A stretch of DNA of 33,376 nucleotides from Chrysochromulina tobinii (lineage: Eukaryota), in NCBI GenBank assembly GCA_001275005.1, contig JWZX01003200.1, forward strand, positions 1 through 33,376, written 5' to 3'. Positions 578 through 29,791 of the stretch are shown piece by piece. The position numbers were made by a program, and so were the translations under genes. Within the stretch, counting starts at the first letter, position 1, and every line of letters begins with the position of its first letter. The notes beneath the pieces were generated by a model, which saw nothing but the letters and a program-made list of their open reading frames with translations, searched no databases and was not told the origin of the DNA.

Positions 578-3500
578 ATGCGCCGTGTGCCGGTCGAGCG
601 GGCGGCGGCGGCGCGCGGCGACGGCACGCCGTCGACGCTTCGATCATCGCCTTCCAAGGCGGCCGGCGCACGATCGAGAACGGGAAAGAAGAAGAAGAAG
701 GCTTCCGGCTCTCCTTTGGCGGGTACTGCCGAGGAGGAGGACGAGGAGGAGGAGGAGGAGGAGGTGCGGGCGACCACACGTACGTCCCTCGCCACCGCAA
801 ACGCATGCGCGCAGCTCGTGGCTACCGCAGCAACGGTGGAGACCGCAGCAAGATTGCAGAAACTGCTGCACGGCGACCTTGCCGAGCAAGCGATCGCCGC
901 GCTGCTTGCGATTCCAAGTGCAATTGCAGGCCTGCTCGAAGCTGCGTCGAGCTCCAGCACGTCTACCGAGGCGCGAGTGCGGCTGCTTGGTTCCATTGCT
1001 GCCTGTCGTGGGCCCGGACCTTTCAAGGAGCTGGATCCGGAGGCGGAGCGCGAGGCGGTCACCGCTTGTCTCTCGATCCTAGCGGAACCGGACGCGTCCG
1101 TGGAGCTGCAGGCGTCGACTCGACGGCTACTACGCACGGCACAGCTAGAACCGCTTCGAGAAGCGTGCGTTGCAGCCCCCACCCTCCCCCAAAGACTGCA
1201 CGCCACCCTGCGCTTCAGCCGCACCCGCTGTGCGACCACCTACTCACAGTGCCGCTCTCCATTCGCCCAATTCGCAGGCTTGCGCTGCAGTGCAAGTTGC
1301 TTCAGGATGAAGCTGCCGCCGCTGCTGCGGCACGCACATTGGCCCGCGTGGCGGGGTTTCGCGAGCCGCCGCCATCGACGTTTGGCGCCCCCACCAGCTT
1401 CGGCTCAAACCAGGTGGCGCTTCTCGACGAGGTGCCCGGCGCTCTAGCGATCCTGGTGGCCGCGCTAGACAAAGCGAGTGCGTCATGTGCGGACGACCTC
1501 GGGCTCATCATCGCCGGCATTGCCGAAGCTCGCGGTGCGGGCTACCGGCTGCTCCTCGAGGCAGGCGCCGTGCCTTCGCTCTTGCGCCACCTGCCGCACA
1601 ATGCGTCCATGGGCGTAGCGCTCGCCATTGAATGCATCGCAGCGCACGAAAACGGTCAGGATGCGCTTTGTCAATGCAATGCGGTGCCACTGCTGGTGGC
1701 CGCGGCGTCGCAAGCTTCGAGCGCGGCGGCCGCGAGACGCTTTGCGTTCGCATTAGGTTGCTTGGCGGCGCACGCGAGTGCACGGGTGGAGCTCGCAAGC
1801 CTCGAGCATCGTGCCGCCAGCGACGACAAGGCGCTGGAGCTCTATGCCATGGCCGGGTTGACCACTCCTGGCTTCTTTGCAATGAGGGGGAGCGTGATGC
1901 AGCTGCTGCAATCGCTGTCGGCGCGTTCGCTGTCTCAAGGCGCGCTCTTGCTCATACGAGCGGTCGCAATCGCAGGTTCTCCAGAGCAAAAGTCTCAACT
2001 GATCACGAGCGGCAGAACATTCGAGATGCTCATCCAAAGCGTCGAGGTTGATGTGACTGGGTGGGCATGGTGTGCCCTCTCGCAGCTCGTCAGCTCAGAT
2101 CAGGGCCGCAAGCGCGCGCTCCAGCTCGAGCTGCCGCGCCGATTGCCCGCGGCGCTCTCGAGCAACTTCAAGGTGGCGTACCAAGCGCTAGTGGTCATTG
2201 ATCGGCTCTCAGTCAAAGCGACCAAAGCTGCCGCAGCGGTGCTGGCCACTGATGGAGTGATCTCCGAGCTAACCCGGCTGATTGCTGCGAGCGGGGAGGA
2301 CTATGAGGCACGATTCATGGCCAACGCAGCGGCGAACACGATCAAGAATGTGGTCGAGAGCGCGCCAGTGTCGTACGAACTGACGCCGCTCTCCGAGTGG
2401 AGCCTCGCTATGCAGGCGGCGAGCGTGCTCCAGCGCGCAGCGGTCGAGGCGCTCGAGCCGACGCTGAAGCTGCTGTCTCTGCCTGAAGTTGCGGATGCGA
2501 GTACAGATCATTTGGCTTCCCTCGCGTCCGTGCTTGCGAAGGGCGCTCACGGCTGCAGCTTGGCGCGCATCGCGCTCGGAAACGTGCTGCAGACGGACGT
2601 CACGGTAAAGAGCTCTCGGCTGCAGGACGCCTTGCTGCTACGAAACCGTCTGCTATCGGCATGCTACGACAACGGGGTGTGGGAGCCGACGCGCGACTTG
2701 GGTGTCGAGCTCATGGCAGTGCTAGAGCATGGGCTACGCGAGCCGGAGAGGTGCAGCGCGGCGCTCATTGTGCTTCACAGCTTACCCGACTTTGAGAGTA
2801 CAGTTGCGCCTGCCCTGATCAGCAAAGGCTCGGCCGTGCGTGAGCTTGTGGCACTGCTTGACCCCACCAGTCTAGATATTGCGCACTTTGCCCTCCGTGT
2901 GCTCTGTGTGGTGGCGAAGCTGCCAGGAGGGTACACAGCACTCGCAGATGCCGGTGCTCTCCAAGCGGCGGTGCAGCTCCTGCGCGAGAGGTTAAGGTCG
3001 AGCTGGTATTGCGCGGAATTGCTGAGCGCCGTCCTGAGCGCGGCGGACAGCGCGGGCGGCGACGAGCGGCGGCGCGTCGCCGATGCGGTCGTCGCCCTTG
3101 GCGCGGTGCCGATGCTCCAGGCGCAGGTCATGAACGACCCGCTCCTCCGACGCTCGACCACCGCCAGCTGCTGCACGCTGCTCACGCATCTCGCGCGGAC
3201 CGACGCGGGGGCGAAGGCGCTCAAGGCGCTGATCGACGCGCGCGCCGTGTGCGCGGTGCGCATGGTGGTGGCGACGAGCCACGCGCGAGCGGCGGCGATG
3301 AGGAAGGGCGGGCTGATGACCGCGGTGCGCCCTTGGCTCAAGGCGCTCCACAGCATGGCGCCAGCAGAGCGCGAGGCGACGCTGGGGCTGGTGAGTGACT
3401 TTGCCGCGGCGCGCGACGTGTCGACGGAGACGCACGTGCTGCCTCTGGTGCCGCTGATCGTGCCGATGGTGCAGTCGGTGATCAGTGGCGGCGTGTCAGC

Positions 3501-6500
3501 GCGCGACGCGTCGGCCGTCGCGGCTGTGAAGCTGCTGGTGTCGCTGAGCACCGAGCAGGCGGGGCTGCGGGCGGTGCACGGCGCGGGCGTGCTGCCGCTG
3601 CTGCTGCCGCTGATGCGCGCGGGGTCGGCGGCGGGCGAGGGCGCGTACATGAGCGAGGGGGGTGCGCTGCTGAAGCGCGCGCTGGCCGACGCGGAGGCGC
3701 GTCCGGCGGGCGTGCGTGTGGTGGAGGCGGTGGTGGGGATGCTGCCGGCGGCGGAGGGCGCAGGCTTTGATCCCTTTGACGCCGCGGAGGCGCGGTTCGC
3801 CTCGGAGCTGCTCATCACGTTTGTTTCTCATCAAGCCGTTGCAATGTGCGAGGCAGGCGTCTTGCCGCGGCTCGCCAAGGCTGCGAGTGAGGACGCATTC
3901 GTTGCGCCACGAAGGCTGTCGCAGCTTGCGGTGGAGATGCTCGCATCCCTCCTCCAACAGCGCCCGACGAGCAACGAGCTGACTCCCAGCATCACGCGGC
4001 TCCTCGTGCGCTCCGCGGACGGCGCCACAGCGCCTCATGCCGCACGTGTGGCCCTTCTTAAGGATGCATTGCCCGCATTGAGCAAGGAGGTCCGTCGGAA
4101 CATGGCGGAGGCGTGCATTGGCGTGCTGGGGCTGCGGAATGCGCCCGACGAGCTGCAGGAAGCGGCGGCACGGCGGCTGCTCGACGAGCCTGATCGCACA
4201 CTGCGTGCCGACGTATTGCCTCGCTGGTGTGCAGCGTTGCAGGCGGAGGATGCCGATGCTTCGAGCCGCACCGCGCGCGTGCTCGCGCGCGTAGAGGCCG
4301 CTGAGGTCGATGCCGTGCCGAGCGCGCTCCAATGCGTGATTACGGCGCTCGCCGAGGCCGCCCCTGCCGTAGCGAGCGACCTCGCATCCGTCGTGCATGC
4401 AATCGCGGGAGCTCGATCGCAAGCAGGCTATAGACTGCTGCTCGATGGCGGCGCAGTGCAGGCTCTTCTCCGGCAGCTGCCGCACGAGGACTCGTCCGTC
4501 AAGGTCGCCGAGGCGCTCGCGAAGCTCGCGCAAACCGACGACGGCCAGGACGAGCTGATCAGGGCGAAGGCGGCTCCACAGCTGCTAGCAGCGGCGCTCG
4601 AGGCTGCCGAGGATGCGGCCGCCGCCGACGCGATCCGTGCGCTCGCCCACCTTGCAGTGCACGCCGACGGGCGTGCGCAGCTGTCGAAGCTCGCGGAGCT
4701 TGCGCTGAAGGGGGAGCGCGCCCTGCGGCTCCTCGCCATTGCGATCGCGACGTCGAGCGTGTGCGCTCGTGCCGTGGCGGAGCCGGCGATGCGGATGATC
4801 GAGCCGGCGCTCGCGTCGCGTCGGCCACCGTCGACGGCCATGCTGAAGTTGCTTCACTCGGTCGTTACCTCTGGCGAGCTCAAGCAGGGCGAACAGATGG
4901 CAAACGACGCCGGAACGGAGGCCATCACATCCGCCATCGAGGGGGAGGATCCGTACGGGATCGCATTGCACTACTTGGTGGATCTCATAGCCAAGGTTGA
5001 CGAGGTCCGGTCGAAAGTGCTGCGGCTCAACCTGCTGGAGCGCATCCTGCTCCGCACCCTTGACGCAGACTCTCGACCTCAACGATACCAAGCAATCAAC
5101 TTGGTCATGGTCTTGAGCCGCTCCGAAGACGGCGCCGCCGCTGTGGTGCGCGTCGAGGGTGTCGTGGCGCGGCTTGCGCGCCTCGCCACAGATCAGCGCG
5201 ATTCTGGCCAAGCGTCCCATGCCGACGAGCAGCTGGCCACGCTGCTCAGCAAGCTCGCCGATGCAGCTACGGCGCAGGCCGCGCGCAACGTGGCGGCAGA
5301 CGAGCGCTTTGAGCCGCTGCTCCGCCTCAAGCCCGAGAGCAAGGCACTCGTGGCGCTGGTGCGCAGCGACAAGGGCCGTGCTCGAGCCCGCCGGGCGCTC
5401 GCGCACGTGCTCGCAACGAACGTGGGCCGCGAGGCCGAGTGCAAGCTGCTCTTTGGGCTTCTGAAGCCGTGCTACGAGGAATTCCGCTCCGAGTCCGAGG
5501 ACGTGGGCAAGCGGCTGGTCTACCTGGTGCAGCGCGATGGGGTCGAGCCCATCGACCGCGTGCGGCTACTGGATCACATCATCAATCACCCAGATGCGGC
5601 CAAGCTCAAGCAGCAGCTGGTGGCTGCGAAGACATTCCTTCCCGCCCTGGTCAAGGATTTGGACGAGGACAACGTGGAGACGGTCTCGACGGCCCTTCTT
5701 TGGTTGAACGCCTTCCCTGGCGTGGCCGGGGCGATTGTACCCTTGCTGGCCGCGCAAGTCGTCCATCGGACCATGGCCACCTTCCAAAAGCCAGGGCGCG
5801 ATCGGCAGTGCGACGATGCCGCGACTCAACTGCTTGAATCGCTACTCGGCACTGCCAACCGCGAGTCGAGCCAGACATACCGCTCGGTTGTGGAAGGGAT
5901 CCTCAGCCACGCTGCACGCCCATTGCTCGTCGAGGAGCTTCCGCGGCGGGACGCGAGCCGTCGGCTCGTTCGCGCCCTCGTGCAAAAGATCGAGCGTGGC
6001 GCGAGCGCCGATTTCCGAACGGTCGCCTCAGCCTTTTGTGAGAGCGCCGGGTTCCGGCAGCTGGTGGCCGAGTTGGCGAAGGGATCGCACGCCTCGTGCG
6101 CAATCACCGCTGACGACAAGAGCGGACGGGTGGCAGTCGACGTTGCTGCAGCCTCGCTGAGCGAGATCCTGAGCGCGGCGGACAGCGCGGGCGGCGACGA
6201 GCGGCGGCGCGTCGCCGATGCGGTCGTCGCCCTTGGCGCGGTGCCGATGCTCCAGGCGCAGGTCATGGACGACCCGCTCCTCCGACGCTCGACCACCGCC
6301 AGCTGCTGCACGCTGCTCACGCATCTCGCGCGGACCGACGCGGGGGCGAAGGCGCTCAAGGCGCTGATCGACGCGCGCGCCGTGTGCGCGGTGCGCATGG
6401 TGGTGGCGACGAGCCACGCGCGAGCGGCGGCGATGAGGAAGGGCGGGCTGATGACCGCGGTGCGCCCTTGGCTCAAGGCGCTCCACAGCATGGCGCCAGC

Positions 6501-9500
6501 AGAGCGCGAGGCGACGCTGGGGCTGGTGAGTGACTTTGCCGCGGCGCGCGACGTGTCGACGGAGACGCACGTGCTGCCTCTGGTGCCGCTGATCGTGCCG
6601 ATGGTGCAGTCGGTGATCAGTGGCGGCGTGTCAGCGCGCGACGCGTCGGCCGTCGCGGCTGTGAAGCTGCTGGTGTCGCTGAGCACCGAGCAGGCGGGGC
6701 TGCGGGCGGTGCACGGCGCGGGCGTGCTGCCGCTGCTGCTGCCGCTGATGCGCGCGGGGTCGGCGGCGGGCGAGGGCGCGTACATGAGCGAGGGGGGTGC
6801 GCTGCTGAAGCGCGCGCTGGCCGACGCGGAGGCGCATCCGGCGGGCGTGCGTGTGGCGGAGGCGGTGGTGGGGATGCTGCCGGCAGTGGAGGGCGCAGGC
6901 TTTGATCCTTTTGACGCCGCGGAGGCGCGGTTCGCGTTGCGCGTGCTTGAGCCGATCGTCCCCGTTCAAGCTAGTGATGCGGCTTCCGCTATGCCATCGC
7001 TGGTGGCAGTTCGTGAAGCGGGTGGCATCGCGCGCACATTGGCGGCGATGCGTGGTGACGAGTGGGCGCTGACGCGCTCGCTGGTCGCTTCGGCAGCATC
7101 GCGTGTTTCCGGTCTGCTCAACGACCCGGATGGCTTGGCGGTCGCGCACGACCTCGGCGCGCTCCGAACACTAGTCAACGCCCTCGAGCAGTGCCCCGAT
7201 GTGAGAATTTTTGACTTCCTCAGGCCGCTCCAGAGCTTTGTCCTCGCACCCGTTCACGCCTACCGTGACGCAATCCTCGACGCCGGCCTCCTGCCCCGCC
7301 TGGCCGGCTTTCTCAAGCCGGGGCCGTCGCACCCCGGCTTCCGCATCTCGAGTACCATGGTGCAGCTCCTCGCCAGCTACGGCGCGCCCGCCCACCGTGA
7401 GGCCGTCCGCTCGAGCGACGCGCTCGCTGCCATCCTCCACTGGCGCGCGAGCGGCCGTCTGGCCTCGAATGATACTACTACCACGATATCGCGTAGTACC
7501 ATGGTGTCGCGATCCTCGAACTTGGTCGGCTGGTTCGCCAAATGCCCGGCGGCGCACTCCATCCTGCGCCGCGCCATCGAAGAGCTGGGCGAAGACGCAG
7601 GAGGAAAGGACGAGGCCGCGCTCAAGCTGCTTACGTATGCGAGCGCCATGCCCGAGGGGGCGGCGGTCACCGTGGACGAGGGCGTCGTGCCCGCACTCAT
7701 CAAGCTGCTCGAGTCGGGCGCACGGAGCGCCCGACACGCCGAGGCGGCGCAATGCCTGCAAGTGCTCACGCGCATGCTACCGAAGCGCACAGCTCCTGCT
7801 GCGCCGGTGTGCAGGATGAAGGCCAGAGAGGCGCTCGACAAGCGCGAAGCGAGTGCGCTTGGTTACTGCTGTGCGCGTTCGCTTGGTTGCTTGGCCGAGA
7901 CCGCCTCCAAGGCTCGCTCCGCGATCCGCATTCTCGTCGCGCGCATTTTCGAAGAGGCCGACGGCGGTCGCGAGATCACCGCGATCTTGACGCTGAATCT
8001 GCTCGCTGTCGCGTGCGAGTCACCTGACGGCGCGCGTGTCGCATTCAAGGCGGGCGTGGTTGCCGAGGCGGTGCAAGCGCTGAGCGGCGCACGCGACACC
8101 CAATTGCGTGCGAGTGCCCTGAAAACCCTAACGTCGGTGGCTGAGAACAGCGAGGCGGCGAGAGCATCCATGCGCGACGGCAACCTCATTGACACCCTCG
8201 TGCGGCTCCTCCACCGCTCGTGGGCCGTTCCCTCCGCAGTGGATGCGGTCGTCATGGCCGGCAAGTCCAGCGCTGAGTCCAGCCATGTCGCTGCCAATGC
8301 CACGCCGCGATCAGCTTTCAAGTACAGCGCCTACCTTTCGCACGACAGCGCCCGCGACGAGCTCAAGCGTGACAATGTGGAACGTGTCGGGGCCGTCAAG
8401 GCAGCCCTCGCCAAGGCGGGCCTGGTGCCGTGCCTCGTCGATGCGGAGCGAGACGCCAACGACGTGATCCGGCAGATGGAGGAAGGCATCGCGCAGTCGG
8501 CGTGCGTGATCGTCTTCCTGACCGAGTCGTACATGAAAAAGGCCGCCGGGCTGGGCAGCAAGGGCGACGACGACAATGCGCGCTTCGAGTTCAGCCAGGC
8601 GTGCAGCCCGTCTAAAGGGGTCGCCAAGATCATCCCGGTGGTCATGGAGCCGCAGTGCCTCGCGCAGACGTCGTGGCAGCCACTCTTCCTTGGCAAGCTG
8701 GGAGGCAAGGAGTTTATTGACCTGGCCCGCGACAATGATGAAGCCAGCGGCGAGAAGCACTTTGATGACGGCGTGAGTAGCTTGATCTCGTCGATCAAGG
8801 CGATGCCTGGCAGCCTCGTCGGGGGGGGGGCGGCAACGGCGGCGCAGGTGGGATCATCGTCCACGGTCAATGAAGCACCCGCGGACGCGGCCGACGACAT
8901 GGACCGCGACATCGAGGTGGGCAAGTTGGCGCTGGCGCTCTTGCACACGCTCTCGCGGGGTGACGTGCTGCGGCAAGCCATTCAGGCCGCCAAGCCGCTC
9001 GACGCGCTGCAGTACATCATCGAGCACGATGCGGCACAGCGCGCCGACGCGCTGCTCATCGTGAGCAACGTCTACTCCGAGGTGCTGAGCCAGTCGGTGG
9101 GTAAGGGCCACGGCGCGGCCATGGTGCAGCATGAGCGCGTGCGCCGCCTGCTACACGACAGTCGCATCGAGGACGAGCTCGCACCCCGCCTCGTTGAGGG
9201 CGTTCGGATCCTCGTGAGTAGCAGAATTGTCTTTGAGATTGTCGTAGATGGCAGTGGCCCGTCCTACGCGCGCATCGCCGCGACCGCCGTGCGCAATTTG
9301 GCGGCCGAGTCGGTGCTGCGCCAGCGCCTCGTGCACAAGGGCGTGGGCAACAGCCTCGCGCGTATGCTCATCGAGGGGCCGCTGGCCCCGCACCCCACGT
9401 CGGACGCCGACCTCGTCCTGGCCGCTGAGGCTCTGCAGCGCTGCGCGCTCGCCATCACGGGCGCAGCAGAAGAGACGGATCGCATTCGGAAGCGGCTCGT

Positions 9501-11796
9501 CGCGGACGGAGCCGAGGACGCGCTCACCTCCGCCGCCGAGCTGCACGAGAACGAGGATGCCGATACGGAGAGCGTCCAGCGGCGTCGGCAGGCGGCCAAA
9601 TACGCCCTCGACGCGCTCCAAGGCAAGCTGGACGTGCAGACTCTCCCTGGCACAGGACACGCCCAGCGCACGCTCAAGCGGCAGCTCTCGACCCTGGGCA
9701 CCGACTACAGCAAGTGGGACGACCACCAGCTCCTCAGCATCCCGCGCTACAACACGTTCATCTCGCACAAGCGCTCTTCGGCGCAGGACTTCGCTCGAGG
9801 TCTGCATTCGCTCATCGTGCATCACGGCCACTCGTGCTTCATCGACGTAGAGAACCTCGAGTCACTCAGCGACCTGCCGATGGTGGTCGCGGGCTGCGAC
9901 GTGTTCATTCTGGTAAGCTGTGCTGCCGCATGCGTGCGATGGGATCTGATCGGCTCCCTACCTCAAATGCATGTCCACTCACGCGGTTCGTTTTCCCATG
10001 CACGCGCGTACCCGCGCCGCGCAGGTCCTGAGCGACGGCGTCTTCGAGTCCGAGTTCTGCATGCAAGAGCTTGCGAGCGCCGTCAACGCTGGCGTCGAGA
10101 TCGTCCTCATTACCAAGGAAGGCTCGCGCTGGCCCAACCAGAACGGCGACATGGTCGAGGTCTTCCCGCCGCCCGAGCTCATCAAGACGCTTGAGCCGCC
10201 CGAGTGCCGTGACGCGTTCGAGCGCCGCGCTATCACGCACTCGAACGAGTACTACGCCGCCTTCAGCCACAACCTCATGCAGACTGTGGACAAAATGATC
10301 AAGGAGCACCGCCACCAGTACCGCCAGGGGAACAGCCCGCCAGAGGGGCAGGACACCCCCGATCGGCTCGTCTTGACGCAGCGACGGCAGCTGCTCCTGG
10401 CGCGCAGCCAGAGTGCCAATCGCAGGAAGGGCTCCTCCGACACGGCTGCGGTCGCCATCGTAGAGTCCGCCGTCACGTCGCCCGTCAGCCTCGTGGACGC
10501 CAAGCGGCTGGAGGAGGCCATCAACGATCTGGGCGATGACCCGAAGCTCGACCCACGCGTGGTTGCGGCGGCGAAGCAGAAGCTGGAGCACGCCCGCGCG
10601 CAGAGCAAGTACACGCTCGAGGAGAAGCTCGCCGCGGCGCTCGAACGCACGGCATGCGAGTTTCAGTTCTTGCGTGCGAAAGTCCTCCTCGAACGAGACG
10701 ACATGTTCGCTCCCAAGCACAAAAGCGTTCAGGAGGACCCAGAGCTCTACAAGATGCTCTATCTCAAGTCGGCCGAGTGCTGCCAGCACATGTTCCGTGA
10801 GAAGGTCCTCGCCGTGTCGCATCGATGGGACCGGCTAGAAGAGCCTGATCCTTCGGGCGCTCAGATGAAGGCCATCAAGCGCATACTGCGCACCAACCCC
10901 CAATACGAGTACGTGTGGCTGGTACGTCGCAGCGCCCTCTTTGTGCATTCTCCTGCGGCTGGCTCCCAAAAGGCCCATTCCACTCTGACTCAATCAGATC
11001 GCAAATGCATGAGCTGACGACGTCTTCTCGCTTTGGCGTGCTTCTCCCCGGGAATGGGTGCGATCCGCAGGACTACAGTTGCGCACCGCAGGGCGAGCGC
11101 ACGCCGCAGGAGAAAGAGATCTTCAGCCTCACGCTCGAGAACATGGACTTTCTCTTCCTGGGCGCGTCGGTGCTCATCCTGCTCGATATGTCGTACATGT
11201 CGCGCTTTTGGTGAGAGCGAGCCGATTCCCCGCGTCATGCGATCGCGCTCCTCGACTGCTGGCATGGCGCTGAGATGTTCACACGCGTGTTCTGTTGTTA
11301 TTGGCGCAGGACCCAGTTCGAGGCTTGGATGGCGTTCCAGGAGGTCGACTCCAACGGCGTCCTGCGATGCGCTTCGGAGGATAACCGCCGATGCATGATT
11401 GAGTGCATCCACAACGCCAACAAGTACACCAAGCTGCAGCTGATCGAGATGTGGTCCAACAAGACGCCAGAGGAGGCGTACAACATCCTGAAGAGCGAGG
11501 ACGTGTCCGTCACCAACACGAAGGACAAGGAGCTGCAGCTGCCCCGTATCCAGACCTTCAAGGAGAGCGTGCAGAAGACTTGGCGGGCGGCGGTCGAGAA
11601 TGGAGAGATTCTGAGCCCCTCACGAAGGCCGAGATTCAAGTCCGACACCGAGACGGCGCTCGGCGAGCCGGCGAGCCCCTCGGTCAAGGGTGTCTTGGCG
11701 AGTCCCCAGCTCGCACCGTCGCCGTCGTTCTCGACTGTGCGTTTTGAGGCAGACTCATCCACCGAGCAGGGCGTCATGCTCATAAAAAGCGTTTGA
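578..11796 (+). CDS. Giant ARM-repeat protein with two TIR domains and a C-terminal HET-like domain (~3,581 aa; exons 578-1164, 1278-9912, 10025-10921, 11071-11210, 11310-11796)
   Basis: Four GT-AG introns join ORFs 509, 418, 9971, 10915 and 11275 in consistent phase. Splicing restores motifs across junctions (DVFIL|VLSDG, YVWL|DYSC, SRF-W-TQFE). ARM-like GAVxxLxxLL helical repeats run throughout. Exon 1 aligns to the second solenoid copy (TACLSILAEPDASVELQASTRRLL vs EACIGVLGLRNAPDELQEAAARRLL). Confidence 0.85.
1165..1277 (+). other. Intron 1 of giant gene (113 nt, phase 2)
   Basis: GC|GTGCGT...TTCGCAG|G. Removing it switches ORF 509 into the frame of ORF 418 and gives PLREALALQCKLL. Confidence 0.75.
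3032..3800 (+). repeat. 769-bp in-frame intragenic duplication, copy 1
   Basis: Matches 6167-6935 (offset 3135 nt = 1045 codons) with about 6 substitutions counted by eye. Confidence 0.95.
6167..6935 (+). repeat. 769-bp in-frame intragenic duplication, copy 2
   Basis: Matches 3032-3800; same peptide LSAADSAGGDERRR...FDPFDAAEARFA. Confidence 0.95.
8317..8790 (+). other. TIR domain 1 (algal/protist TIR_2-type) within giant protein
   Basis: YSAYLSHDS...DNVERV...MEEGIAQSACVIVFLTESY...DNARFEF...KIIPVVME...FIDL follows the TIR beta/alpha order. Glu codon at 8587-8589. Confidence 0.8.
9748..10290 (+). other. TIR domain 2 (SARM1-like) within giant protein, split by intron 2
   Basis: FISHKRSS...CFIDVENLE...CDVFILVLSDGVFESEFCMQELASA...IVLI...HSNEY. 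Compare SARM1 TIR motifs FISYRR, VFIDVEKLE, FVLVLS, WVHKEI, WSHEY. Glu codon at 10067-10069. Confidence 0.85.
9913..10024 (+). other. Intron 2 of giant gene (112 nt, phase 0)
   Basis: CTG|GTAAGC...CGCGCAG|GTC. Removal restores the TIR beta-C strand VFILVLS. Confidence 0.9.
10922..11070 (+). other. Intron 3 of giant gene (149 nt, phase 0)
   Basis: CTG|GTACGT...CCGCAG|GAC, with an internal CTGAC branch-like motif. Confidence 0.85.
11211..11309 (+). other. Intron 4 of giant gene (99 nt, phase 2)
   Basis: TG|GTGAGA...GGCGCAG|G rebuilds the Trp codon of SRFWTQFE. Confidence 0.85.
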
Positions 11797-12037
11797 TACA
11801 ATCAACCAGCAAGGACATGCCATTGGGCATCTGAGCCAGCAGCTGGCACAAGCCAACGCGGTGCTGCTGCAGGCGCACAAGGATGTGATGCGGCTGTTGC
11901 ATGCGCACACGGACACGACCTAAAAGGCGAACACGGAATTTGCGAATGCCGTGAGTAAGCACGCGGAGCTCCAAGCGTTGTTGCTCGCCGAACAATCGAG
12001 GGAGCGCAAGAAGGATGGGCAAGGCCCGGGTCGGTAA
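11795..12037 (+). pseudogene. Coding-like coiled-coil tail just past the stop of the giant gene (+1 frameshift and internal TAA)
   Basis: Deleting one T from GTTTGATACA gives KSVDTINQQGHAIGHLSQQLAQANAVLLQAHKDVMRLL...TT*KANTEFANAVSKHAELQALLLAEQSRERKK...*. Confidence 0.45.
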
Positions 12038-12071: not shown

Positions 12072-12705
12072 CGCGTAGGTCCCTAGTTGTACTCAGTGTC
12101 GTGCATACATAGTAGGGAGAATATGAGGCAATAATTCAAAATTCAACGATCACGCACAATCAATTGGCGACCTCTTATGCTGAGTCGTAAGGCATGCCTT
12201 GCTTGCTTTTGCATGCGGGACGTCTTTCGTACATGCAGAAGACATCTGCAACTCGCCCACTACTCGCCCTGACGACAGCTGACCGCACAATCGATTGCGC
12301 GATCGTCGGAGCGGAGACGTAGGAAGCGGGCGCAGCAGAAGGAGCCTGAGCAAAGTCGGAGACCATGGAAGAACCGGAAGCCGTAGTCGAAGGTCAAGGC
12401 GAAGGAAGCGGTCAACAGGGAGCTCGAGTGTCGAGATGCCTGCACAAGGGACGCCGACTCGGGAGAAGCAGCAGCTCAGAGCTCGGCCCTTAGTGGCCAG
12501 CTCTCGGGCATGCCGATTATAAATCATCATCCCTAACTTGTGATGCACAGAGAAGACGCAGCTGGTCAGCCCACCGAGGACGCCAACGAGGTCAAGGACA
12601 CCAAGGGGCTCGAAGGACGCAAGGATGGATACAACGGTACACCCGCCGCCGGACGACAGACGAGGAGCATGCCAAATGAGGTTGCCGTCATATTTGACGG
12701 CTGCA

Positions 12706-12731
12706 CCAGGCTCCCAATTAGTGAACGAGGC
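12706..12731 (+). repeat. 26-bp exact direct repeat, copy 1 (CCAGGCTCCCAATTAGTGAACGAGGC)
   Basis: Identical to 14254-14279. Both copies are followed by TAyGTAAAA...AAATTTGG. Confidence 0.9.
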
Positions 12732-12854
12732 GGCGGATATGTAAAAACTGAAATTTGGGTCTCGCAAGAAGATCGGGGACAGACAAGGGGGGGGGAGGCG
12801 TGTGTGAGAGATGTGAATGGCCTCGTACCTGTAACCAATATGCTAAATCATGAT

Positions 12855-12927
12855 ACGTTACTGTGCAGGGGGACCCGTATTACGGGACCGCGACGAAACT
12901 GACTGACAGACTGACTGACGTTACAGT
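12855..12927 (+). mobile_element. Very short insert with hairpin and (GACT)n-like tail between 10-bp direct repeats; possible truncated retroposon 3' end
   Basis: ACGTTACTGT (12855-12864) and ACGTTACAGT (12918-12927) flank CCCGTA-T-TACGGG and ACTGACTGACAGACTGACTG. Confidence 0.35.
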
Positions 12928-14021
12928 CAATTGCGGGTCTTACGGCCGTTTTTACGGCCGATGAAGTACACCTCTCCCTCGAGGAACCTCTTGAGGGTCG
13001 GGTGCTTCCCTCGAAACCGGTAGATCTCGTCGTAGAGAAGGCCAAGCCACCAGTCGTAGAAATGGAGTGGTAGCCGTACCGGATGATAGATCTGGTCGTT
13101 TTCGGAGAGGCGGACGGCGCGCTCCTGAAAGATGAAGAGCCCCCGCGGGCGGAGCAGCCTGTAGGCTGTCTCTAGCGTGGCGAATGCGTTGAATGTGTGC
13201 TCGATGCAGTTGATCATGACGACGACGTCAAAGGTCTCATTTTCGGAATAGGGCACCTCCTCCGCTCCTATCGAGTGGAGGTCGACGGGCACCCCATTAA
13301 GAAAGCCATTCTTGTACAGCGTGTTGCCAGAGCGCAGGTAGCCGTTGATTCCCGGGTCGACGAGGGTGATCGACGTCGCGTTGATGTCGGGACGCGCGTT
13401 GAGCATGAAGTGCGTCTGCGTCCAGCACTGCCCGGAGCCGAGCTCGACTATGCGACCAAGATTTCCCACAGGAAGCGCCGCGTAACGGCCAAAGAACTGC
13501 ACGTGTCCAAGCGCGCGATCGCCGCTCTGTGCATCTGAACTGCGCGATTCTTTCCATAGGAGCGCCTCGGCCTCTTGCGCTTTCTCCCATCGCGCCTTTG
13601 GTATCACTGCAGAGCCGTAGTCAGGGTGACGAAAGCAGCTGTCAAACCGCCGCCTGTAACTTGCGGCTCGAGTTGGTTCGCGACATGGTAAGGGTGGCGG
13701 CGCTGTGAGCTGACAAAAGTCGCCTCGTGAACCCGGCTTGCAAAAGCACTTGCCAAAAAAGCACACACCGCGCGCGCTGCAGTTGGAGGTCGCGTTCATG
13801 CACTGACGGTTGGGGTTGAAGGCGAGGGTACCATAGCTGCACGTGCTGAACACGCTGTCATACTCTTTTGTGCGCTCAATGCACAAAGCGGGTAACAAAG
13901 CGGGTGGTGCCGCGTGAGCACTTGCTGTGGCGAAGAGAGAGGCGATGACGGCGAAACTGGAGCGCGCACGGAGTGCACCCGAACGCTCCATGCGGATCGC
14001 AACAAGACCGCCCGCGGCCAT
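12927..14021 (-). CDS. Class I SAM-dependent methyltransferase with N-terminal signal/anchor and EGF-like domain (~364 aa)
   Basis: Hydrophobic FAVIASLFATASAHA; EGF-like CSARGVCFFGKCFCKPGSRGDFC; motif I IVELGSG, ITLVDP, FDVVVMINCIEH, LLRPRGLFIF. Start could be 14066, 14021 or 13991. Confidence 0.8.
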   Translation of the reverse strand: MAAGGLVAIRMERSGALRARSSFAVIASLFATASAHAAPPALLPALCIERTKEYDSVFSTCSYGTLAFNPNRQCMNATSNCSARGVCFFGKCFCKPGSRGDFCQLTAPPPLPCREPTRAASYRRRFDSCFRHPDYGSAVIPKARWEKAQEAEALLWKESRSSDAQSGDRALGHVQFFGRYAALPVGNLGRIVELGSGQCWTQTHFMLNARPDINATSITLVDPGINGYLRSGNTLYKNGFLNGVPVDLHSIGAEEVPYSENETFDVVVMINCIEHTFNAFATLETAYRLLRPRGLFIFQERAVRLSENDQIYHPVRLPLHFYDWWLGLLYDEIYRFRGKHPTLKRFLEGEVYFIGRKNGRKTRN

Positions 14022-14253
14022 GGGGAAAAGAAACAGAAATAGAGTTTCGATTGGTAAGAATGGCATGCAAGATGAACTCCCCCCGGAACATAGCGTGACC
14101 TGCACAGATGCTAGGTAAAACGAATAGGTATCAGGTAGCGGCGCCACCCACGAAGTGGATGAATTTGGGGGATGTTCCTTGGGATGTTCAAATAAATACT
14201 ATTGTAAGTCGTGGCCGGCGGAGAGTGTAGCATACCATTAGCTCGGCCCGCCC

Positions 14254-14279
14254 CCAGGCTCCCAATTAGTGAACGAGGC
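14254..14279 (+). repeat. 26-bp exact direct repeat, copy 2
   Basis: Identical to 12706-12731. It lies in the divergent intergenic region. Confidence 0.9.
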
Positions 14280-14400
14280 AGAGTATACGTAAAATTTGGT
14301 GGAAAAAAAGCATGCATGACGTCCAGAAGAAACAAGAATCGCTTTTGGAAAGTTGAGTCTCCTACCATGGTACCGCGTGCTCGAGACGACCGCCCGCTGG

Positions 14401-16092
14401 ATGCGGCTGTACCACATGCTCCTTTGGGCAAGTCAGATGCGCGCGGCAAGTCACATGCGGTCACATGCGCGCGGCACTTCACATGCGCGCGGCGACAACG
14501 CCCTCGGGCATGAATTCGCCAGTGTGCGGTCCTGGGCTGACAGCCTTCGAGGGACCGGCAGACCAGCGCCTCTTCGACTGCTCGATGACGCAGGGCGGCC
14601 CGCGACCAAGGCCTTTGACAGCCGCTGCGCAGGCGAGGCTTATGCGGTGCTGATCACGCAGCACAGCACTGGGTCGAAAGCGGTCTCCCACACACAGAAG
14701 AACTTTGACGACAAGGGCGGTGCCAGCGGGCTGGCATCAGCCATGAAGGTCACCGGTGTGGTGCGCTCGCAGCTGAGGTTGCTCGTGGTCCTGGCGCGCT
14801 CGCTGAGGCGTGTAGAGCGCTGCCGACGCGCCATCGTGATTCTCCTCGGCGAGATGGTGACGTTGCCTGCAGACGTGCGCGTCGAGCTCTCGCAGCTCGG
14901 CATTCGAATCGCCGCTGTGCCGCCCCTGCTGCTCGGTACCGCGTGCCTCGACAAGCTGCACGCGTGGCGGCTCCCCTTTGAGCGAGTGGCCATGCTCGAT
15001 GCGGACGTGGTTGTGCTTCAGCCTCTTGATGACCTATTCTCGAGGCCGGAAGAGTTCCTGATCGCGCGACATAACGGAGGCGGGTTAGAGCAGGCTCAAT
15101 GCGGTCTGCCCAAGGAGCGTTGGGGCATCGGCGCCTTCTTCGTCCTCCGCCCCAACCTCACCGCCTTCTCTGCGCTCTCGGCGTTTGCCAACGGACCGAT
15201 GCTCAATCTCCCGGCACTCGAAACCTATAGCGAACAGATTCTGCTGCCATGCTACTTTGCGAGCACGTCCCACACGATGCACCCGCGGTGGTTGTGGGAG
15301 ACTGGGCCTGGCGTATCTTACAAGGCGCAGCACTGTGCAGGCATGCCGCCACTCGCGACGCCGCCGCCACCGCCAGGTGCACACGAGGAGCGAACGGCAG
15401 GGAGGCGGCTCGCTCACGCGCCATCTCTGGAGTCGCCGGTGCAGTCGGGGCTGTCTCTCGAGCAAGCGGCGCTGCTTCTGGCCGCTGGGAACGTGTCGGC
15501 CCACATCAAAAGGCTCAGCCCATACCTGCAGCACTGCCTGAACAACATCCGAAACAAGCGCATCTCAAGCGTCTACCGGACTTGCCTCTTCTCTCCCGCG
15601 AGCCGCTGCCTTCCACAGACCCCCGAGCGCATGCTTGACCTGTGCTACGGACATCCGAACCTCACTTCCGAAGAGGATTGCGGCTTCGGCGCTGGCCACG
15701 TGCACGCGTGGCACTTCAAGGGGTTTGCCAAGCCCTGGCGCGAAGCTTATGACACGGGCGAGTGCCACAGATTGGCGATGCGAGGCTATCTGCGCCTCGA
15801 GGGCCTGAATGGCGATGCGAGCCTCGAGCACTCACGGCGTCTGGCCTCCGACGACGCGCTTCAGTGGCGGCGGCCAGATGCGGGCCATCATGGCCCCGCA
15901 CTCGATGCGTGCGTGAGTAGACTCACAGGGCGGAGAGTGCTCTGGGCGAGGAACACGAGCGAGGACGCCCCGCCCGACCGCGGAAACGACGCAGGCGCCA
16001 AGCCATTCGCGCTCCCGAGGCAATGCTGCACACCAAATATTGCGATGAAGGCCTATTGGCATGGCTTACTCAACGACACAGCCATTGTGTGA
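14401..16092 (+). CDS. GT8-family (glycogenin-like) glycosyltransferase (~563 aa)
   Basis: KLHAWRLPFERVAMLDADVVVLQPLDDLF (DxD motif), FFVLRPN, EQILL, HFKGFAKPW. Start codon uncertain. Confidence 0.8.
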   Translation: MRLYHMLLWASQMRAASHMRSHARGTSHARGDNALGHEFASVRSWADSLRGTGRPAPLRLLDDAGRPATKAFDSRCAGEAYAVLITQHSTGSKAVSHTQKNFDDKGGASGLASAMKVTGVVRSQLRLLVVLARSLRRVERCRRAIVILLGEMVTLPADVRVELSQLGIRIAAVPPLLLGTACLDKLHAWRLPFERVAMLDADVVVLQPLDDLFSRPEEFLIARHNGGGLEQAQCGLPKERWGIGAFFVLRPNLTAFSALSAFANGPMLNLPALETYSEQILLPCYFASTSHTMHPRWLWETGPGVSYKAQHCAGMPPLATPPPPPGAHEERTAGRRLAHAPSLESPVQSGLSLEQAALLLAAGNVSAHIKRLSPYLQHCLNNIRNKRISSVYRTCLFSPASRCLPQTPERMLDLCYGHPNLTSEEDCGFGAGHVHAWHFKGFAKPWREAYDTGECHRLAMRGYLRLEGLNGDASLEHSRRLASDDALQWRRPDAGHHGPALDACVSRLTGRRVLWARNTSEDAPPDRGNDAGAKPFALPRQCCTPNIAMKAYWHGLLNDTAIV

Positions 16093-16354
16093 GTTTGAGT
16101 GTCTCTCCGGCCCCGCGTCTTTATACTTACGACACTGCGAGACACTCACCGCACTTTATATAGCTCTGCAACAGGGCAGGGCTTGGGTCTTCCTGTTGAC
16201 AAGGATTGGCCCCGCGGATTCCGTGACGGCGTCCTCGCCTGTAGCTCGCTCCGGTGCACACAAGTTCCGAACCATTCACACCTCGGAGTTCACACGAGTT
16301 TTTCCCCGAAGACCCTGCATTTGATGACGACGTACAGTACTTGTACCTCGTGTG

Positions 16355-17202
16355 ATGATGCCACTCTTCTTGTGCGCCGCTGCGAGCGCCCTGTTCCTCC
16401 TGCAGACGCCGCCGCCTCCGCTGCAGTCCGCCCATCCAGTATCACGACCATTGATGCTCTGCGGCAGCGTCGTCAAGGCCGTCACATTCGCCGAGACCGG
16501 CTTGGGCCGTTCAATGTTGCGGGCGGCGCAGCAGCAGCAATGGCTGACGCCCACGTCCGTACAGAGTGAGGCGATCCCTGCTATTCTCAGCGGCTCAGAC
16601 GTCTGGGCGCAGGCGCCAACGGGCAGCGGCAAGACGGCAGCGTTCGCACTGCCTCTGCTTCAGCGCCTCGACACTGGCGCTCCTCGGCCGCGGGGTCGCC
16701 ATGTAAACACTCTGATCTTGTCGCCGACTCGAGGGCTGGCCGTGCAGACTTCGGAGGCCTTCCGCGCACTCAGCGACAGCGCCGGCACACGCGCCAAGAT
16801 TGTGGCGCTGCATGGCGGCGTCTCGATCAACCCGCAGCTACGCTCGCTCGCTGGCGGCGCCGACGTCCTCGTCGCGACGCCCGGCCGTCTGCTGGATGTG
16901 CTTGCGAACAATGGCGTGCAGCTTGAGCGCGTGGCGACACTGGTGCTGGATGAGGCGGACCGGCTGCTTGCCAACGAGTTCAGCTTCGAGTTGGAGCGCG
17001 TCCTCGAGGCCCTTCCGCCTCCCGCCTCTCGGCAGACGCTCGTGTTCTCGGCGACGTTTCCGTTCACGTCGCGACCGAAGGCGAAGCGCTTGCTCCGACC
17101 GTCACACGTGCGCGTCTCGAGCGAGCTGGCGCAAGCGGCCGCAGATCTCGAGGTCACAGGCTCCGAGGCAGGCGCCTTGGAGGCCCAGCCGAAGGAGGAG
17201 GG

Positions 17203-17247
<45 letters not shown>

Positions 17248-18287
17248 GGAGGAGGCGGAGGTGGATGGGAGATTGGGTGTAGCTCAGCGGAGGCGGCCGA
17301 TCCCCTCGGGTTCTGAGAGGTATAGCAGTGCGCCTCCACCTGCGACCATCGAGCAGCGGGCAATCTTAGTGGATCGGCGCGAGAGGACGCCGCTCCTGCG
17401 CCATCTGCTCGACAGCCAGGGCTGGGCGCGCTGCCTGGTCTTCGTCGGCAGTCAAAAGGCAGCGGACCACGTGGCCTCGAAGCTCAAGAACTCTGGGTCA
17501 GCTGATGGCCGCTGATGGCCGCTGAGGGCTGCTGAGGGCTGCTGAGGGTTGCTGAGGGTTGCTGAGGGCCGCTGACCTCTGATGCCACTGATGAGGGCTG
17601 CTGTGGGCTCTGGCCGGCTCTGGTCGCCATTGATTTGCCTCGGATCGCCTCTGCTTCCCCACCTGAGTGCCTCTGAGTGCCTCCCTCATCAGGTACGACT
17701 CCGAGGCGCTCCATGGCGGCTTGACGCAGGAGGTGCGCGCCTCGCGCCTTCGTGCCTTTGATCGGGCGGAGCTGCGCGTGCTCGTGGCCACGAACGTCGC
17801 GGCGCGTGGCCTCGATGTGGTCGGGCTAGAGGCGATCGTCAATTACGAGCTGCCCCGCTCTACGAGCGACTATACCCACCGGGTCGGCCGGACAGGGCGT
17901 GCTGGCCGGGCGGGCGTCGCCGTTTCCTTTGCGGCCAGCACCGGAGCTGGCAATGAGGAGCACTTCGCGCTCATTGAGCGGCGGCACGCGATGCGGGTGC
18001 CGCGAGAGGTCCTGCCGGGGTTTGTGCCAAAAGAGGTGGACCCCCTGCGTGTAACGACCAGTGAGGTGCAGCTGCGTGATGAGGCGGCGGTTTCGGACGC
18101 CGGGCAGGGGGTGACAGAGACGGAGGGCTTGGCGCCACTGGATGTTTCGGTGCCGGGTGTGCGCCATTCCAAATTAGGGCTCGCGCACGATCGTATGCAT
18201 GGCGGCGTCAAAGGGCGGCGGTTGAGCAAGAAGGACAAGCTGAGAGCGCAGCATGCTGAGGCTGTCCGACGGGTAGGTCCGACGTAA
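16355..18287 (+). CDS. DEAD-box RNA helicase, bacterial RhlE-like, with N-terminal targeting peptide (~578 aa; exons 16355-17496, 17693-18287)
   Basis: Q motif PTSVQ, APTGSGKT, PTRGLA, TPGRLLD, DEAD, SAT, VATNVAARGLD, HRVGRTGRAG. The splice gives KLKNSGYDSEALHG. Confidence 0.92.
17204..17245 (+). repeat. (GAT)14 microsatellite encoding poly-Asp in the helicase inter-domain linker
   Basis: 14 perfect GAT units read directly from the sequence. Confidence 0.95.
17497..17692 (+). other. Intron of helicase gene (196 nt, phase 2) built from 10-nt tandem repeats
   Basis: GG|GTCAG, then GCTGATGGCC/GCTGAGGGCT/GCTGAGGGTT units, ending CTCTGAGTGCCTCCCTCATCAG|G. Confidence 0.88.
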
Positions 18288-18416
18288 TCCCGGGAACCAA
18301 AGGTGTCGGAGACGGAGGGGTTTAGGAACATGAAACCGCAGCTCCTTTTGGCGGCACAACCTGATGATCATAATCACACCACCACGTTCACACCTCGCAT
18401 AAACTCTCGTTTTGCG

Positions 18417-19997
18417 ATGGACGTCGAGTCACCTGCGGACCCGAACGAGTGCTTCGTCGGTGTCAAGCCGTTCGAGCGCGCGCTCGTGAAGCTCATCACG
18501 ACTGCTGCGGTCTCGCTTCCATCCTGCTTCTTGCATCCACTCGTGCCGGGCGACGACGGACATACGACCGAAGGTGTCTACTGGGAAGGGCTCCACGCCG
18601 AGGTGCATCCAGCTGGAAATGCAGCGGGTGGCGCCTTGCCTGCCTCCCGCGTGCAGCGCAAATGCTGGCAGCTCGAGAGCCTCATCTCCATCTCTAGACT
18701 GCTCAGTGACGGCCTGCAGGAGGCACGTGGCACGGACGTGGACCATGCAGCGAGTAAGAGGCCGTCGTGCCATCTGGTCGATTTTGCGGGCGGTTGCGGC
18801 CCGCTGGGCTTGCCTCTCGCCGCCCTGATGCCCCATGCCGTGGTGACAATCGTCGAGCTCAAGAAGCGTTCGCTCGACATAGCTCGCGCAAAGGCCGCGG
18901 CCGCCGGGCTGACCAACGTACGCTTCTTCGAGGGCGACCTGAGCGCCTTTGCAGAGGCCTTCGACATCGGCCTCGCGTTGCATGCATGTGGAGCGGCGTC
19001 CGACCTGGTGCTCGACGCCTGCGTCGCCGCGCGCGCCTGCTTCGTCATCTGCCCGTGCTGCACCGGCAAGGTGAGCGAGGCGCGAAAGGACGGTTACAGA
19101 TTCCAAGCGACGGGGAGCAGCGAGGGGCGTGTCACGTACCCGCGCTCCCGTGACGTGGCCGCCGTGCTCTCTTCGGGCGAGTACAACTTCCTCGCGTGCG
19201 CCGCGGACGTATCCGACGAGGCTTTGCTGCGTGGACGGCGCGGCATGCTGCGCCGGCTCGCGAAGACATACCTCGAGCATGATCGCTTGCTGTGGGCGGC
19301 AGAGAGGGACTACGAGGTGCGTTTCACGCGCATGCCGGAGCCCGGTGCGACGCCCAAGAGGGACATACTGTGTGGGTGGCCGTCTGAGCAGCCGCCTTCG
19401 CTCCGCGTGATGGGCTGCCTCTCGCGCCGTGCCGGGCAAGATGAAGATCTCTCGGAACTCCTGCGCCTGCGCCAGACGATGAGAGATGCGGGAGAGGCTG
19501 GTGGAGGTGCTGACGAGGCTGGCGAGGCTGGCGGTAGCGAGGCAGGCAATGGGCCGGTGGCCGCGGCATCGGAGCGGTCGTCCAGTGCGCCCTCAAGCAC
19601 CCAAGCACCCAAGCACCCGGGCTTCCACTCCGGCGTCCACTTGGGCGCACTGCTGGCCGCGTCTGAATGGGATCCGGAGGAGCTTGCTGAAGTGACAGCC
19701 ACCCTCGAGGCACTTAAAGATGGTCAGATCCTCACAGTGGCTGCTAGCAGTGCCCGGCGGCGCAGGCTGGTGCACTTTGCGGCGGACGCGCTTGGGCTCC
19801 ATCATGTGACTGTCGCGGGTGATCAGCGGCCGGACCGCGCCCATCCGGGCGCGGTGCAAGTGCAACGTTTCAAGCAGCCGTCTGCCGCAGCAGCAATCGC
19901 CACTTGCGCTGCTACTTGCGCTGCTGAGGCAGTCGTTCCTTCGGAAGAGTGCGCACCGTGCACCGTTTTGGAGGAGGAGGCGGTTGCGCTGTCTTGA
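18417..19997 (+). CDS. GSTCD-like (Methyltransf_32-type) SAM methyltransferase with C-terminal R3H-like domain (~526 aa)
   Basis: RKCWQLES, VDFAGGCGPLGL, ALHACGAASD, CPCCTGK, YPRS; C-terminal SSARRRRLVHFAADALGLHHVT. Alternative ATG at 18330. Confidence 0.8.
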   Translation: MDVESPADPNECFVGVKPFERALVKLITTAAVSLPSCFLHPLVPGDDGHTTEGVYWEGLHAEVHPAGNAAGGALPASRVQRKCWQLESLISISRLLSDGLQEARGTDVDHAASKRPSCHLVDFAGGCGPLGLPLAALMPHAVVTIVELKKRSLDIARAKAAAAGLTNVRFFEGDLSAFAEAFDIGLALHACGAASDLVLDACVAARACFVICPCCTGKVSEARKDGYRFQATGSSEGRVTYPRSRDVAAVLSSGEYNFLACAADVSDEALLRGRRGMLRRLAKTYLEHDRLLWAAERDYEVRFTRMPEPGATPKRDILCGWPSEQPPSLRVMGCLSRRAGQDEDLSELLRLRQTMRDAGEAGGGADEAGEAGGSEAGNGPVAAASERSSSAPSSTQAPKHPGFHSGVHLGALLAASEWDPEELAEVTATLEALKDGQILTVAASSARRRRLVHFAADALGLHHVTVAGDQRPDRAHPGAVQVQRFKQPSAAAAIATCAATCAAEAVVPSEECAPCTVLEEEAVALS

Positions 19998-29502: not shown

Positions 29503-29679
29503 TGGGGAAGAAGTCAAGTCAAGTCTATACATAAACAACAGACAACCATACGGAAGCCTATCGAATGTGCTCCGGAAGCCAGCAGGGGAGGACGGGAGTC
29601 GATGGAGATGGCGGAGGGAGATCCATCTAGAGGTGACACGTCATAAATTTGACTTGACTTGACTTGACTTGGGGAAGAA
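29503..29679. mobile_element. ~160-bp insert with inverted (AAGTC)3/(GACTT)4 ends and flanking direct repeat; MITE-like or double-tailed retroposon fragment
   Basis: (AAGTC)3 at 29511-29525 and (GACTT)4 at 29651-29670. GGGGAAG abuts both ends (29504-29510, 29671-29677), extendable to TGGGGAAGAA with overlap. Confidence 0.55.
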
Positions 29680-29791
29680 CGCGGTCGTTATCGGGTCTGC
29701 AACGCAAAACGGTATTTCAGCGGGCGAGAGACCGTCACGCAAAAAGCACGCACCTCTCTGTGCATCAACACGGGCGCGCCGGCTTCCGACG

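Follow-up and report, generated by a model that had tools for sequence, protein, structure and literature searches.

A spliced Chrysochromulina tobinii gene with an armadillo solenoid, two TIR domains and a HET-like domain: a candidate intracellular defence or death protein

What would a microalga do with a single protein in which a long armadillo (ARM) rod is joined to two TIR domains and a third, HET-like domain? The question is raised by a gene at 578..11796 (+) of contig JWZX01003200.1 (assembly GCA_001275005.1) of the haptophyte Chrysochromulina tobinii. We analysed positions 1 to 33,376 of this contig (33,376 nucleotides; "the window"), where GC content runs from 53 to 72% and introns are present. 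The answer that we prefer, and to which we give about an even chance, is an ARM-gated, NAD+-cleaving intracellular defence or death protein with two TIRs and a HET-like domain.

Is it one gene? As read in the window it has five exons and four GT..AG introns, and encodes 3,581 amino acids (aa) without an internal stop. Exon 1 (578..1164, +) holds an acidic low-complexity N-terminus and the start of the solenoid, and exon 2 (1278..9912, +; 8.6 kb) the ARM solenoid, TIR1, the middle ARM repeats and the first half of TIR2. Exon 3 (10025..10921, +) adds the second half of TIR2, a helical linker (about 10340-10639) and the start of the HET-like domain, which continues through an interior piece in exon 4 (11071..11210, +) and ends in exon 5 (11310..11796, +). 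The domain order is thus ARM solenoid (~2,450 aa), TIR1, ARM, SARM1-like TIR2, helical linker and HET-like domain.

All four intron joints are found in public RNA contigs of related strains (four runs aligned; runs carry X labels): intron 1 (1164|1278) in X2, introns 2 and 3 in X1, and intron 4 in both. Four further RNA runs, when aligned, gave no splice joint, and the loose end of an X6 contig, at 10922, looks like the beginning of exon 4. The X1 contigs 9393-10284, 10255-10628 and 10411-11211 overlap across introns; no single contig spans the whole gene. In addition, a metagenome scan gave six loci (L001-L006). The first, at 99.95% identity to the window, does not count as independent, and L002 (97% identity) covers the 3' part only. 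L003-L006 carry the whole gene at 85-90% identity, with the same ATG and first exon, the same five exons with GT..AG introns, an open exon 2 and no stop over 3,702-3,705 codons ahead of the tail; the frame is open in all four at a synonymous divergence (dS) of ~0.2 from the window gene. Their flanks have no blastn match to the window flanks, and they may therefore be paralogues or other species. The first-pass annotation, made from the letters of the window, had proposed one polypeptide with introns splitting TIR2 and the last domain, and the RNA joints and the open chain in L003-L006 bear it out. A separate gene for TIR2 and the HET-like domain is ruled out, because exon 2 holds the ARM repeats, TIR1 and half of TIR2 in a single frame and the three X1 contigs continue the chain across introns.

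The 3' end is another matter. The stop at 11796, which the same annotation took as the end of the gene, is due to an extra A in a run near 11785 that is absent from L001-L006 and from contigs of X1, X15 and X16, and is a sequencing slip or a rare allele; that boundary depends on the one extra letter. Without the extra A the L001 frame reaches a TAA at 11921-11923, giving 3,623 aa. L002-L006, the related proteins P0001 and P0003 (P labels denote such proteins) and contigs of X15-X17 read past that position, and in the five loci and the two proteins the frame stays open to the end of the tail. This coiled-coil-like tail frame (11786..12037, +), out of frame in the window, is rich in heptads by our own crude scan, and most relatives have a longer version; in them it could be a coiled-coil oligomeriser.

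Which of the domains would do the work? TIR2 (9739..10312, +; aa 3017-3170) is split by the intron at 9913-10024, which the X1 contig 9393-10284 bridges, and the spliced orthologue P0003 shows two TIR_2 stretches. Its best match among PDB sequences is SARM1, with E3089 (at 10067, in a CMQEL motif) falling on E642. Structure comparisons here and below use two models made on stretches of C. tobinii orthologues, not on the window's own spliced protein. In the 968-aa model (predicted local distance difference test, pLDDT, 86; predicted template-modelling score, pTM, 0.44), TIR2 matches the SARM1 TIR with Z 16.2, a root-mean-square deviation (rmsd) of 2.1 over 128 aligned residues and 30% identity. 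With SARM1 numbering taken from an alignment with full-length chains, TIR2 keeps the equivalents of D594, E596, E599, E642 and W662, together with the invariant positions of its own family. Its ratio of nonsynonymous to synonymous divergence (dN/dS), pairwise against L003 and L005, is 0.13-0.16, the lowest among 12 segments. There is also a weak ThsB profile match on TIR2 (E 5e-6), and no SLOG or Macro effector, the Thoeris partner, among the 12 neighbouring frames scanned.

TIR1 (8311..8805, +; aa 2541-2705) is recognised by Pfam TIR_2 (E 8e-11, 42.9 bits against a cut-off of 28), and in the orthologue model it matches the SPARTA TIR with a VIA Z of 16.1; its dN/dS is 0.35. The glutamate at the catalytic position is present in 13/13 rows for TIR1 (E2633, at 8587, in ARFEF) and 20/20 for TIR2. 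These rows, like the HET-like domains compared below, come from the best 150 of 2,837 matches plus further search sets; they were chosen by similarity to the query, include near-duplicates and leave out domains with less than 70-75% profile coverage. The SHDW tryptophan occurs in 9 of 12 TIR1 rows and is missing only from the window, P0003 and P0041; L003-L006 have the same loss. A wider TIR1 family amounted to only two proteins among 1,019 candidates, and plasmids gave no match.

The third domain (10655..11589, +; aa 3285-3513) lies across exons 3, 4 and 5, with E3424 at 11320 in a TQFEA motif. E3424, W3420, F3419 and D3349 are present in all 142 HET-like domains compared, and dN/dS is 0.32 on the same pairwise basis. 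The orthologue model of this domain has a pLDDT of 96.8. In VIA its best match is the TIR of SpbK (Z 7.5, rmsd 3.4, 108 aligned), followed by a conserved Enterococcus protein, deoxyribosyltransferases (Z up to 6.3) and other TIRs. Foldseek gave nothing at E up to 0.001, its top four, non-significant, being plant TIRs; PDB sequences gave no match. Among Atlas clusters the model matches a fungal one with PF06985 in 100% of members (template-modelling score 0.60 over 169 residues, both sides being predicted models), and haptophyte clusters also match. The helix with the motif S-x-x-W-x-x-x-E comes, as it does in TIRs, after the third strand. Pfam HET (PF06985) finds no match on the window's exon pieces and reaches 19.5 bits in P0002, below its cut-off of 22.5; at E up to 0.1 it is found in 10 of 101 family members (best 7.5e-4). 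Because the Pfam HET cut-off is not reached and profile comparison with TIRs stays at noise level, we call the domain HET-like by sequence and TIR/NDT-like in predicted fold (NDT, nucleoside deoxyribosyltransferase), and not a proven HET member.

The pairwise dN/dS values (about 0.13-0.36) show all three effector domains to be under purifying selection. The domain calls of the first-pass annotation have largely held. TIR1 is real, TIR2 is SARM1-like both in sequence and in fold, the final module is related to HET and has a fold of TIR/NDT type on profile and model evidence, and the three glutamates stand where it placed them. The further helical repeats that it saw behind TIR1 are armadillo in the orthologue model. 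Its solenoid of about 2,500 aa is upheld in part: the first ~2,450 aa are only weakly recognised as armadillo, with Pfam Arm above cut-off in one of three chunks. That rod (851..8241, +; aa ~92-2517) consists of an old duplication of ~1,000 aa (28% identity) and a distal block, a layout common to P0041 and L003-L006. The middle repeats (8926..9678, +; aa 2746-2996) have no Pfam match; their model matches armadillo proteins with Z 14-15, which suggests a generic armadillo fold, and there is no sequence match to the SARM1 ARM. From the last ARM helix to TIR2 the model leaves only ~40 residues, partly disordered.

Within the rod, two 780-bp stretches, copy 1 at 3021..3800 (+) and copy 2 at 6156..6935 (+), are 98.8% identical. 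Such copies are 96-99.8% alike inside one locus and 93-94% alike between the window and L003 or L005. Identity is therefore higher within than between loci, which points to homogenisation by gene conversion, in a comparison of two independent lineages only where assembly can inflate copy identity (99.5% in L003 vs 96.2% in L004). We considered whether the repeat is an assembly artefact; for its layout this is ruled out, since it recurs in L003-L006 and P0041 and X15 contigs cross both junctions of copy 1. No RNA contig among those aligned bridges the left junction of copy 2.

Some relatives carry an additional domain here. Four of the five full-length loci compared (L003:4357-4706, L005:4330-4706, L004 and L006) have an insert of 114-123 aa with a proline-rich linker in an ARM loop of copy 1, near 3636-3643, as does P0041 (aa ~1034-1150); the window has none. 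An X15 contig (3542-3873) supports the insert-free form and the right junction, and at 3644 the loose end of an X4 contig looks like the last part of an insert of this kind. Searches of Pfam and PDB with the inserted domain gave no match. Some plant TIR-NLRs (NLR, nucleotide-binding leucine-rich-repeat protein) have integrated domains, and on that model we infer that the insert may be an integrated decoy. Solenoid segments have dN/dS of 0.24-0.59, pairwise against L003 and L005, with some intervals reaching 1.

How might these parts work together? By analogy with SARM1 and with NLR repeats, the armadillo rod would both sense and autoinhibit, keeping TIR2 apart until a trigger permits clustering, whereupon TIR2 would cleave NAD+. 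TIR2 is probably the ancestral and main enzyme, because it is in every full-length member, is the most constrained and keeps the SARM1 pocket equivalents. The HET-like domain would be a later-added second Glu-dependent N-glycosidase. TIR1 may be partly eroded in this lineage, and more a TIR partner or regulator than a full enzyme; since it has lost pocket residues, three active enzymes in one chain are doubtful. Enzyme TIRs require self-association (PMC8635717), which TIR-TIR contacts together with the coiled tail at the C terminus could provide in place of SAM or NB-ARC. Searches of pieces covering the gene found no SAM domain at E up to 5 (up to 1 in P0003), and Pfam has no NACHT or NB-ARC match in 12 such pieces, P0003 or P0041. 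For the trigger, nothing but the variable solenoid and expression in Gephyrocapsa huxleyi, where TIR genes rise in infected and in resistant cells (PMC12489294), tips the balance from a metabolite towards a pathogen protein. Published work is encouraging in that some TIRs of unicellular eukaryotes are active; the same work describes a 3' cyclic ADP-ribose-making (3'cADPR) algal clade, which includes Chlamydomonas and takes in haptophytes (10.64898/2026.04.20.719644).

Several points weigh against this reading. All point estimates of solenoid dN/dS are below 1, and positive selection is not shown. The 968-aa model, with its low pTM, does not give the arrangement of the domains. Compared with SARM1, TIR2 has His for Y568, Lys for R569 and Phe for W638, and G601 is missing. 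TIR1 has neither the SHDW tryptophan nor that of WFD (it reads CLVD), so that of the three effectors first proposed all keep the glutamate and one lacks pocket residues conserved in its family. The HET-like fold match is middling (Z below 8 may mean merely a common arrangement), deoxyribosyltransferases come only 1.2 Z behind the best TIR, and comparing its profile with those of TIR1 and TIR2 gives no more than noise (probability 1.5-2%). The protein had been said to lack the usual oligomeriser, which is right for NACHT, NB-ARC and SAM; the heptad-rich tail of the orthologues could oligomerise, and it is shortened in the window and L001. Nor is the gene wholly new, its C-terminal half having been deposited as KOO21666.1; the claim of an undescribed architecture stands insofar as we found no description of ARM-TIR-TIR-HET-like in the literature searched, mostly without subscription papers. 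Finally, how HET domains kill is still open (PMC10890737), only 4 of 29 Glu-bearing TIRs of unicellular eukaryotes had detectable activity in a published screen (10.64898/2026.04.20.719644), and a preprint sees no evidence yet of TIR-driven cell death in microeukaryotes (PMC13142454).

What else could the gene be? It could be a SARM1-like metabolic or stress sensor, whose rod would bind a nucleotide or signal damage and whose TIR2 would use up NAD+, pathogen recognition playing no part. For the stretch of the model that runs from ARM to TIR2 the best matches are full-length SARM1 and C. elegans TIR-1, and the solenoid is under purifying selection. Against this, SARM1 is matched by sequence in the TIR and not in the solenoid, and a 2,450-aa rod, a strain-variable insert and swapped effectors exceed the needs of a metabolite pocket; we consider it unlikely, though worth keeping in mind.

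A slightly less probable suggestion is that the protein is a non-catalytic scaffold, its TIR and HET-like domains recruiting TIR or HET partners by homotypic contact and its glutamates being relics or structural. The low yield of the published TIR screen and the erosion of TIR1 fit, as does the fact that HET was first proposed as an adaptor (PMC4986451); the HET-like family is also large and fused to many partners. The glutamates speak for catalysis instead, being kept, together with polar pocket residues, in 20/20 TIR2 rows and 142/142 HET-like domains (sets picked by similarity to the query).

Or might the two effectors have different substrates? TIR2 would then be the NADase, and the HET-like domain a deoxyribosyltransferase or MilB-type N-glycosidase whose substrate is some other nucleotide, an ADP-ribose conjugate or a TIR product. 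NDT enzymes hold VIA ranks 3, 4, 7, 9 and 11 (Z 5.7-6.3) and head the viral structure list, non-significantly, and known TIRs match hardly any of the model beyond residues 45-191. The best match is nevertheless a TIR, the position of the S-x-x-W-x-x-x-E helix is TIR-like and fungal HET clusters match, and we regard this division of labour as improbable.

The preferred reading, an ARM-gated defence or death protein, gains context from its family. Among named proteins the nearest is KOO21666.1 of C. tobinii (1,846 aa, entered as "tir-containing protein"), 84% identical over 1,766 columns. Among 186 proteins mapped, three have TIR1-ARM-TIR2-HET-like (the window, P0003 and P0042), six TIR1-ARM-TIR2 (three of these cut inside TIR2) and six ARM-TIR2, including P0050 and P0059, which are long and have no TIR1. 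P0059 clusters with Prymnesium parvum KAL1530637.1, and P. parvum holds the ARM-TIR2 core. In P0043, P0046, P0050 and P0059 the chain ends in a tail that has no HET-like domain, and TIR2-linker-HET-like is conserved as far as Haptolina ericina. In a 12-row tree of the shared core the HET-bearing rows group with P0041 (99/97); this tree is midpoint-rooted where two long branches meet and does not fix the order of TIR1 gain or loss. Over 92 columns the HET-like part of P0042 is 24% identical to that of the window, among the lowest values for 140 domains, and its identity to another protein is 51%. The module therefore appears to have been attached twice or replaced, a conclusion drawn from an incomplete domain and a quick tree and not from a one-clade test. 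What the domain maps show is an ARM-TIR family whose effectors have been gained, lost or swapped, with TIR1 present or absent. Elsewhere the HET-like module is fused to Roc-COR, WD40, ankyrin, GBP, PARP, ART, helicase, C-type lectin and TIR. The gene might also be a mere by-product of domain shuffling, an ARM gene that had picked up mobile TIR and HET-like modules without any joint function. This would suit the mobility of the modules, the relatives without TIR1 and HET-like domain and the decaying tail of the window's lineage, and is very improbable given a 3,700-codon frame open in four other assemblies at dS ~0.2, effector dN/dS of 0.13-0.36, TIR2-linker-HET-like kept out to H. ericina and spliced RNA contigs.

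Several relatives deserve mention in their own right. P0095 and P0105 join the HET-like module to ADP-ribosyltransferase (ART) or PARP, a further NAD+ link. In P0011, P0044, P0045, P0075 and P0149 the HET-like domain stands in tandem twice or three times, or a TIR2-like or TIR1-like domain twice, and P0143 has a HET-like domain followed by a TIR1-type TIR. Pattern scans found no viral or prokaryotic relatives of P0149, of the HET-like domain or of the inserted domain, which is weak evidence of absence. P0001 (KOO25348.1) is labelled "trafficking protein particle complex 8", apparently in error, and is really the TIR2-linker-HET-like end of this family; the label has spread into an Atlas cluster.

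How far can the reading be pushed? A bolder version, which we think unlikely as a whole, would make these proteins an NLR-independent immune receptor family. An armadillo rod varied by gene conversion and strain-specific decoy inserts would detect giant-virus or parasite proteins and free up to three Glu-dependent nucleotide-cleaving, cassette-swapped modules. If it were true, no HET-type domain would have been shown to be an enzyme before this one; we found no report of HET enzymatic activity in the same literature. Taken singly, the parts are of familiar kinds, and haptophytes were already known to have TIR and HET domains, HET homologues having been noted in 2014 (PMC4986451). The combination, the effector swapping and the variable rod appear undescribed, and the family offers an ARM-TIR design without SAM or NB-ARC and with repeated effector exchange on one chassis. 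It is important to remember that haptophyte blooms are ended by viruses and that TIR genes respond to infection; according to a paper of 2025, microalgae still had no described TIR-based antiviral system (PMC12489294). The gene is a concrete sensor-plus-effector candidate with cultured relatives (C. tobinii and P. parvum) and, if the preferred reading is true, would be among the first such alarm receptors known in microalgae. Furthermore, a compact, confidently modelled HET-like domain with an invariant glutamate makes the question of how HET kills testable by a single point mutant.

The remainder of the window can be described briefly. Just 3' of the gene, ~600 bp at 12092-12693 are missing from L002, with no terminal inverted repeat evident, and a 41-bp motif occurs at 12706-12746 and 14254-14294. 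The region 12927-19997 holds an EGF and methyltransferase gene (- strand), a second methyltransferase and an intron-split DEAD-box helicase with a 10-bp tandem array; the frame 14320-16092 has no Pfam match. A cyclophilin gene (27900-29050, - strand) is interrupted at 28331-28574 by 3.4 copies of a 72-bp unit. In an ABC transporter (29663-33376), 31177-31332 recurs at 33221-33376 (98.7%), by gene conversion between halves or an end-of-window assembly effect.

How does the gene compare with known systems? Nearest are C. tobinii KOO21666.1 and KOO25348.1, with the same splicing, the same ARM-TIR1-ARM-TIR2-linker-HET-like order and 84% identity; they differ in that the models are limited to the C-terminal half or end and keep the full tail, and no description of either was found in the literature searched. 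SARM1 and C. elegans TIR-1 likewise have ARM repeats in front of a TIR that belongs to the same type structurally and has its catalytic glutamate in register, a likeness of sequence and predicted structure. Unlike SARM1, the window gene has no SAM, a solenoid several times longer, pocket substitutions, a further TIR (TIR1) within the solenoid and, after TIR2, a HET-like domain. Plant TIR-NLRs with integrated domains have in common a repeat rod with TIR and an extra domain in some strains; the window gene has neither NB-ARC nor leucine-rich repeats (LRR), and its relatives' insert belongs to no known family. Fungal HET proteins (PF06985; Podospora HET-E, -D and -R, and BH) have a related domain, and the window's near-identical internal repeats recall their concerted evolution, a mark of fungal NLR sensors (PMC4986451). 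The window's domain, however, is C-terminal, not N-terminal, and below the Pfam cut-off, with no NACHT and with ARM in place of WD40. Dictyostelium TirE is, as described in a preprint (PMC13142454), also a protist protein with repeats and two TIRs; its repeats are RCC1 and its TIRs adjacent. In G. huxleyi, HET-annotated genes are up in some resistant strains and down in others (PMC12489294). The TIR genes of that species are reported without nucleotide-binding site (NBS) or LRR, and the word "armadillo" is absent from the main text and spreadsheet of the same paper; like the window gene's, they are haptophyte TIRs with a conserved glutamate, and they respond to virus.

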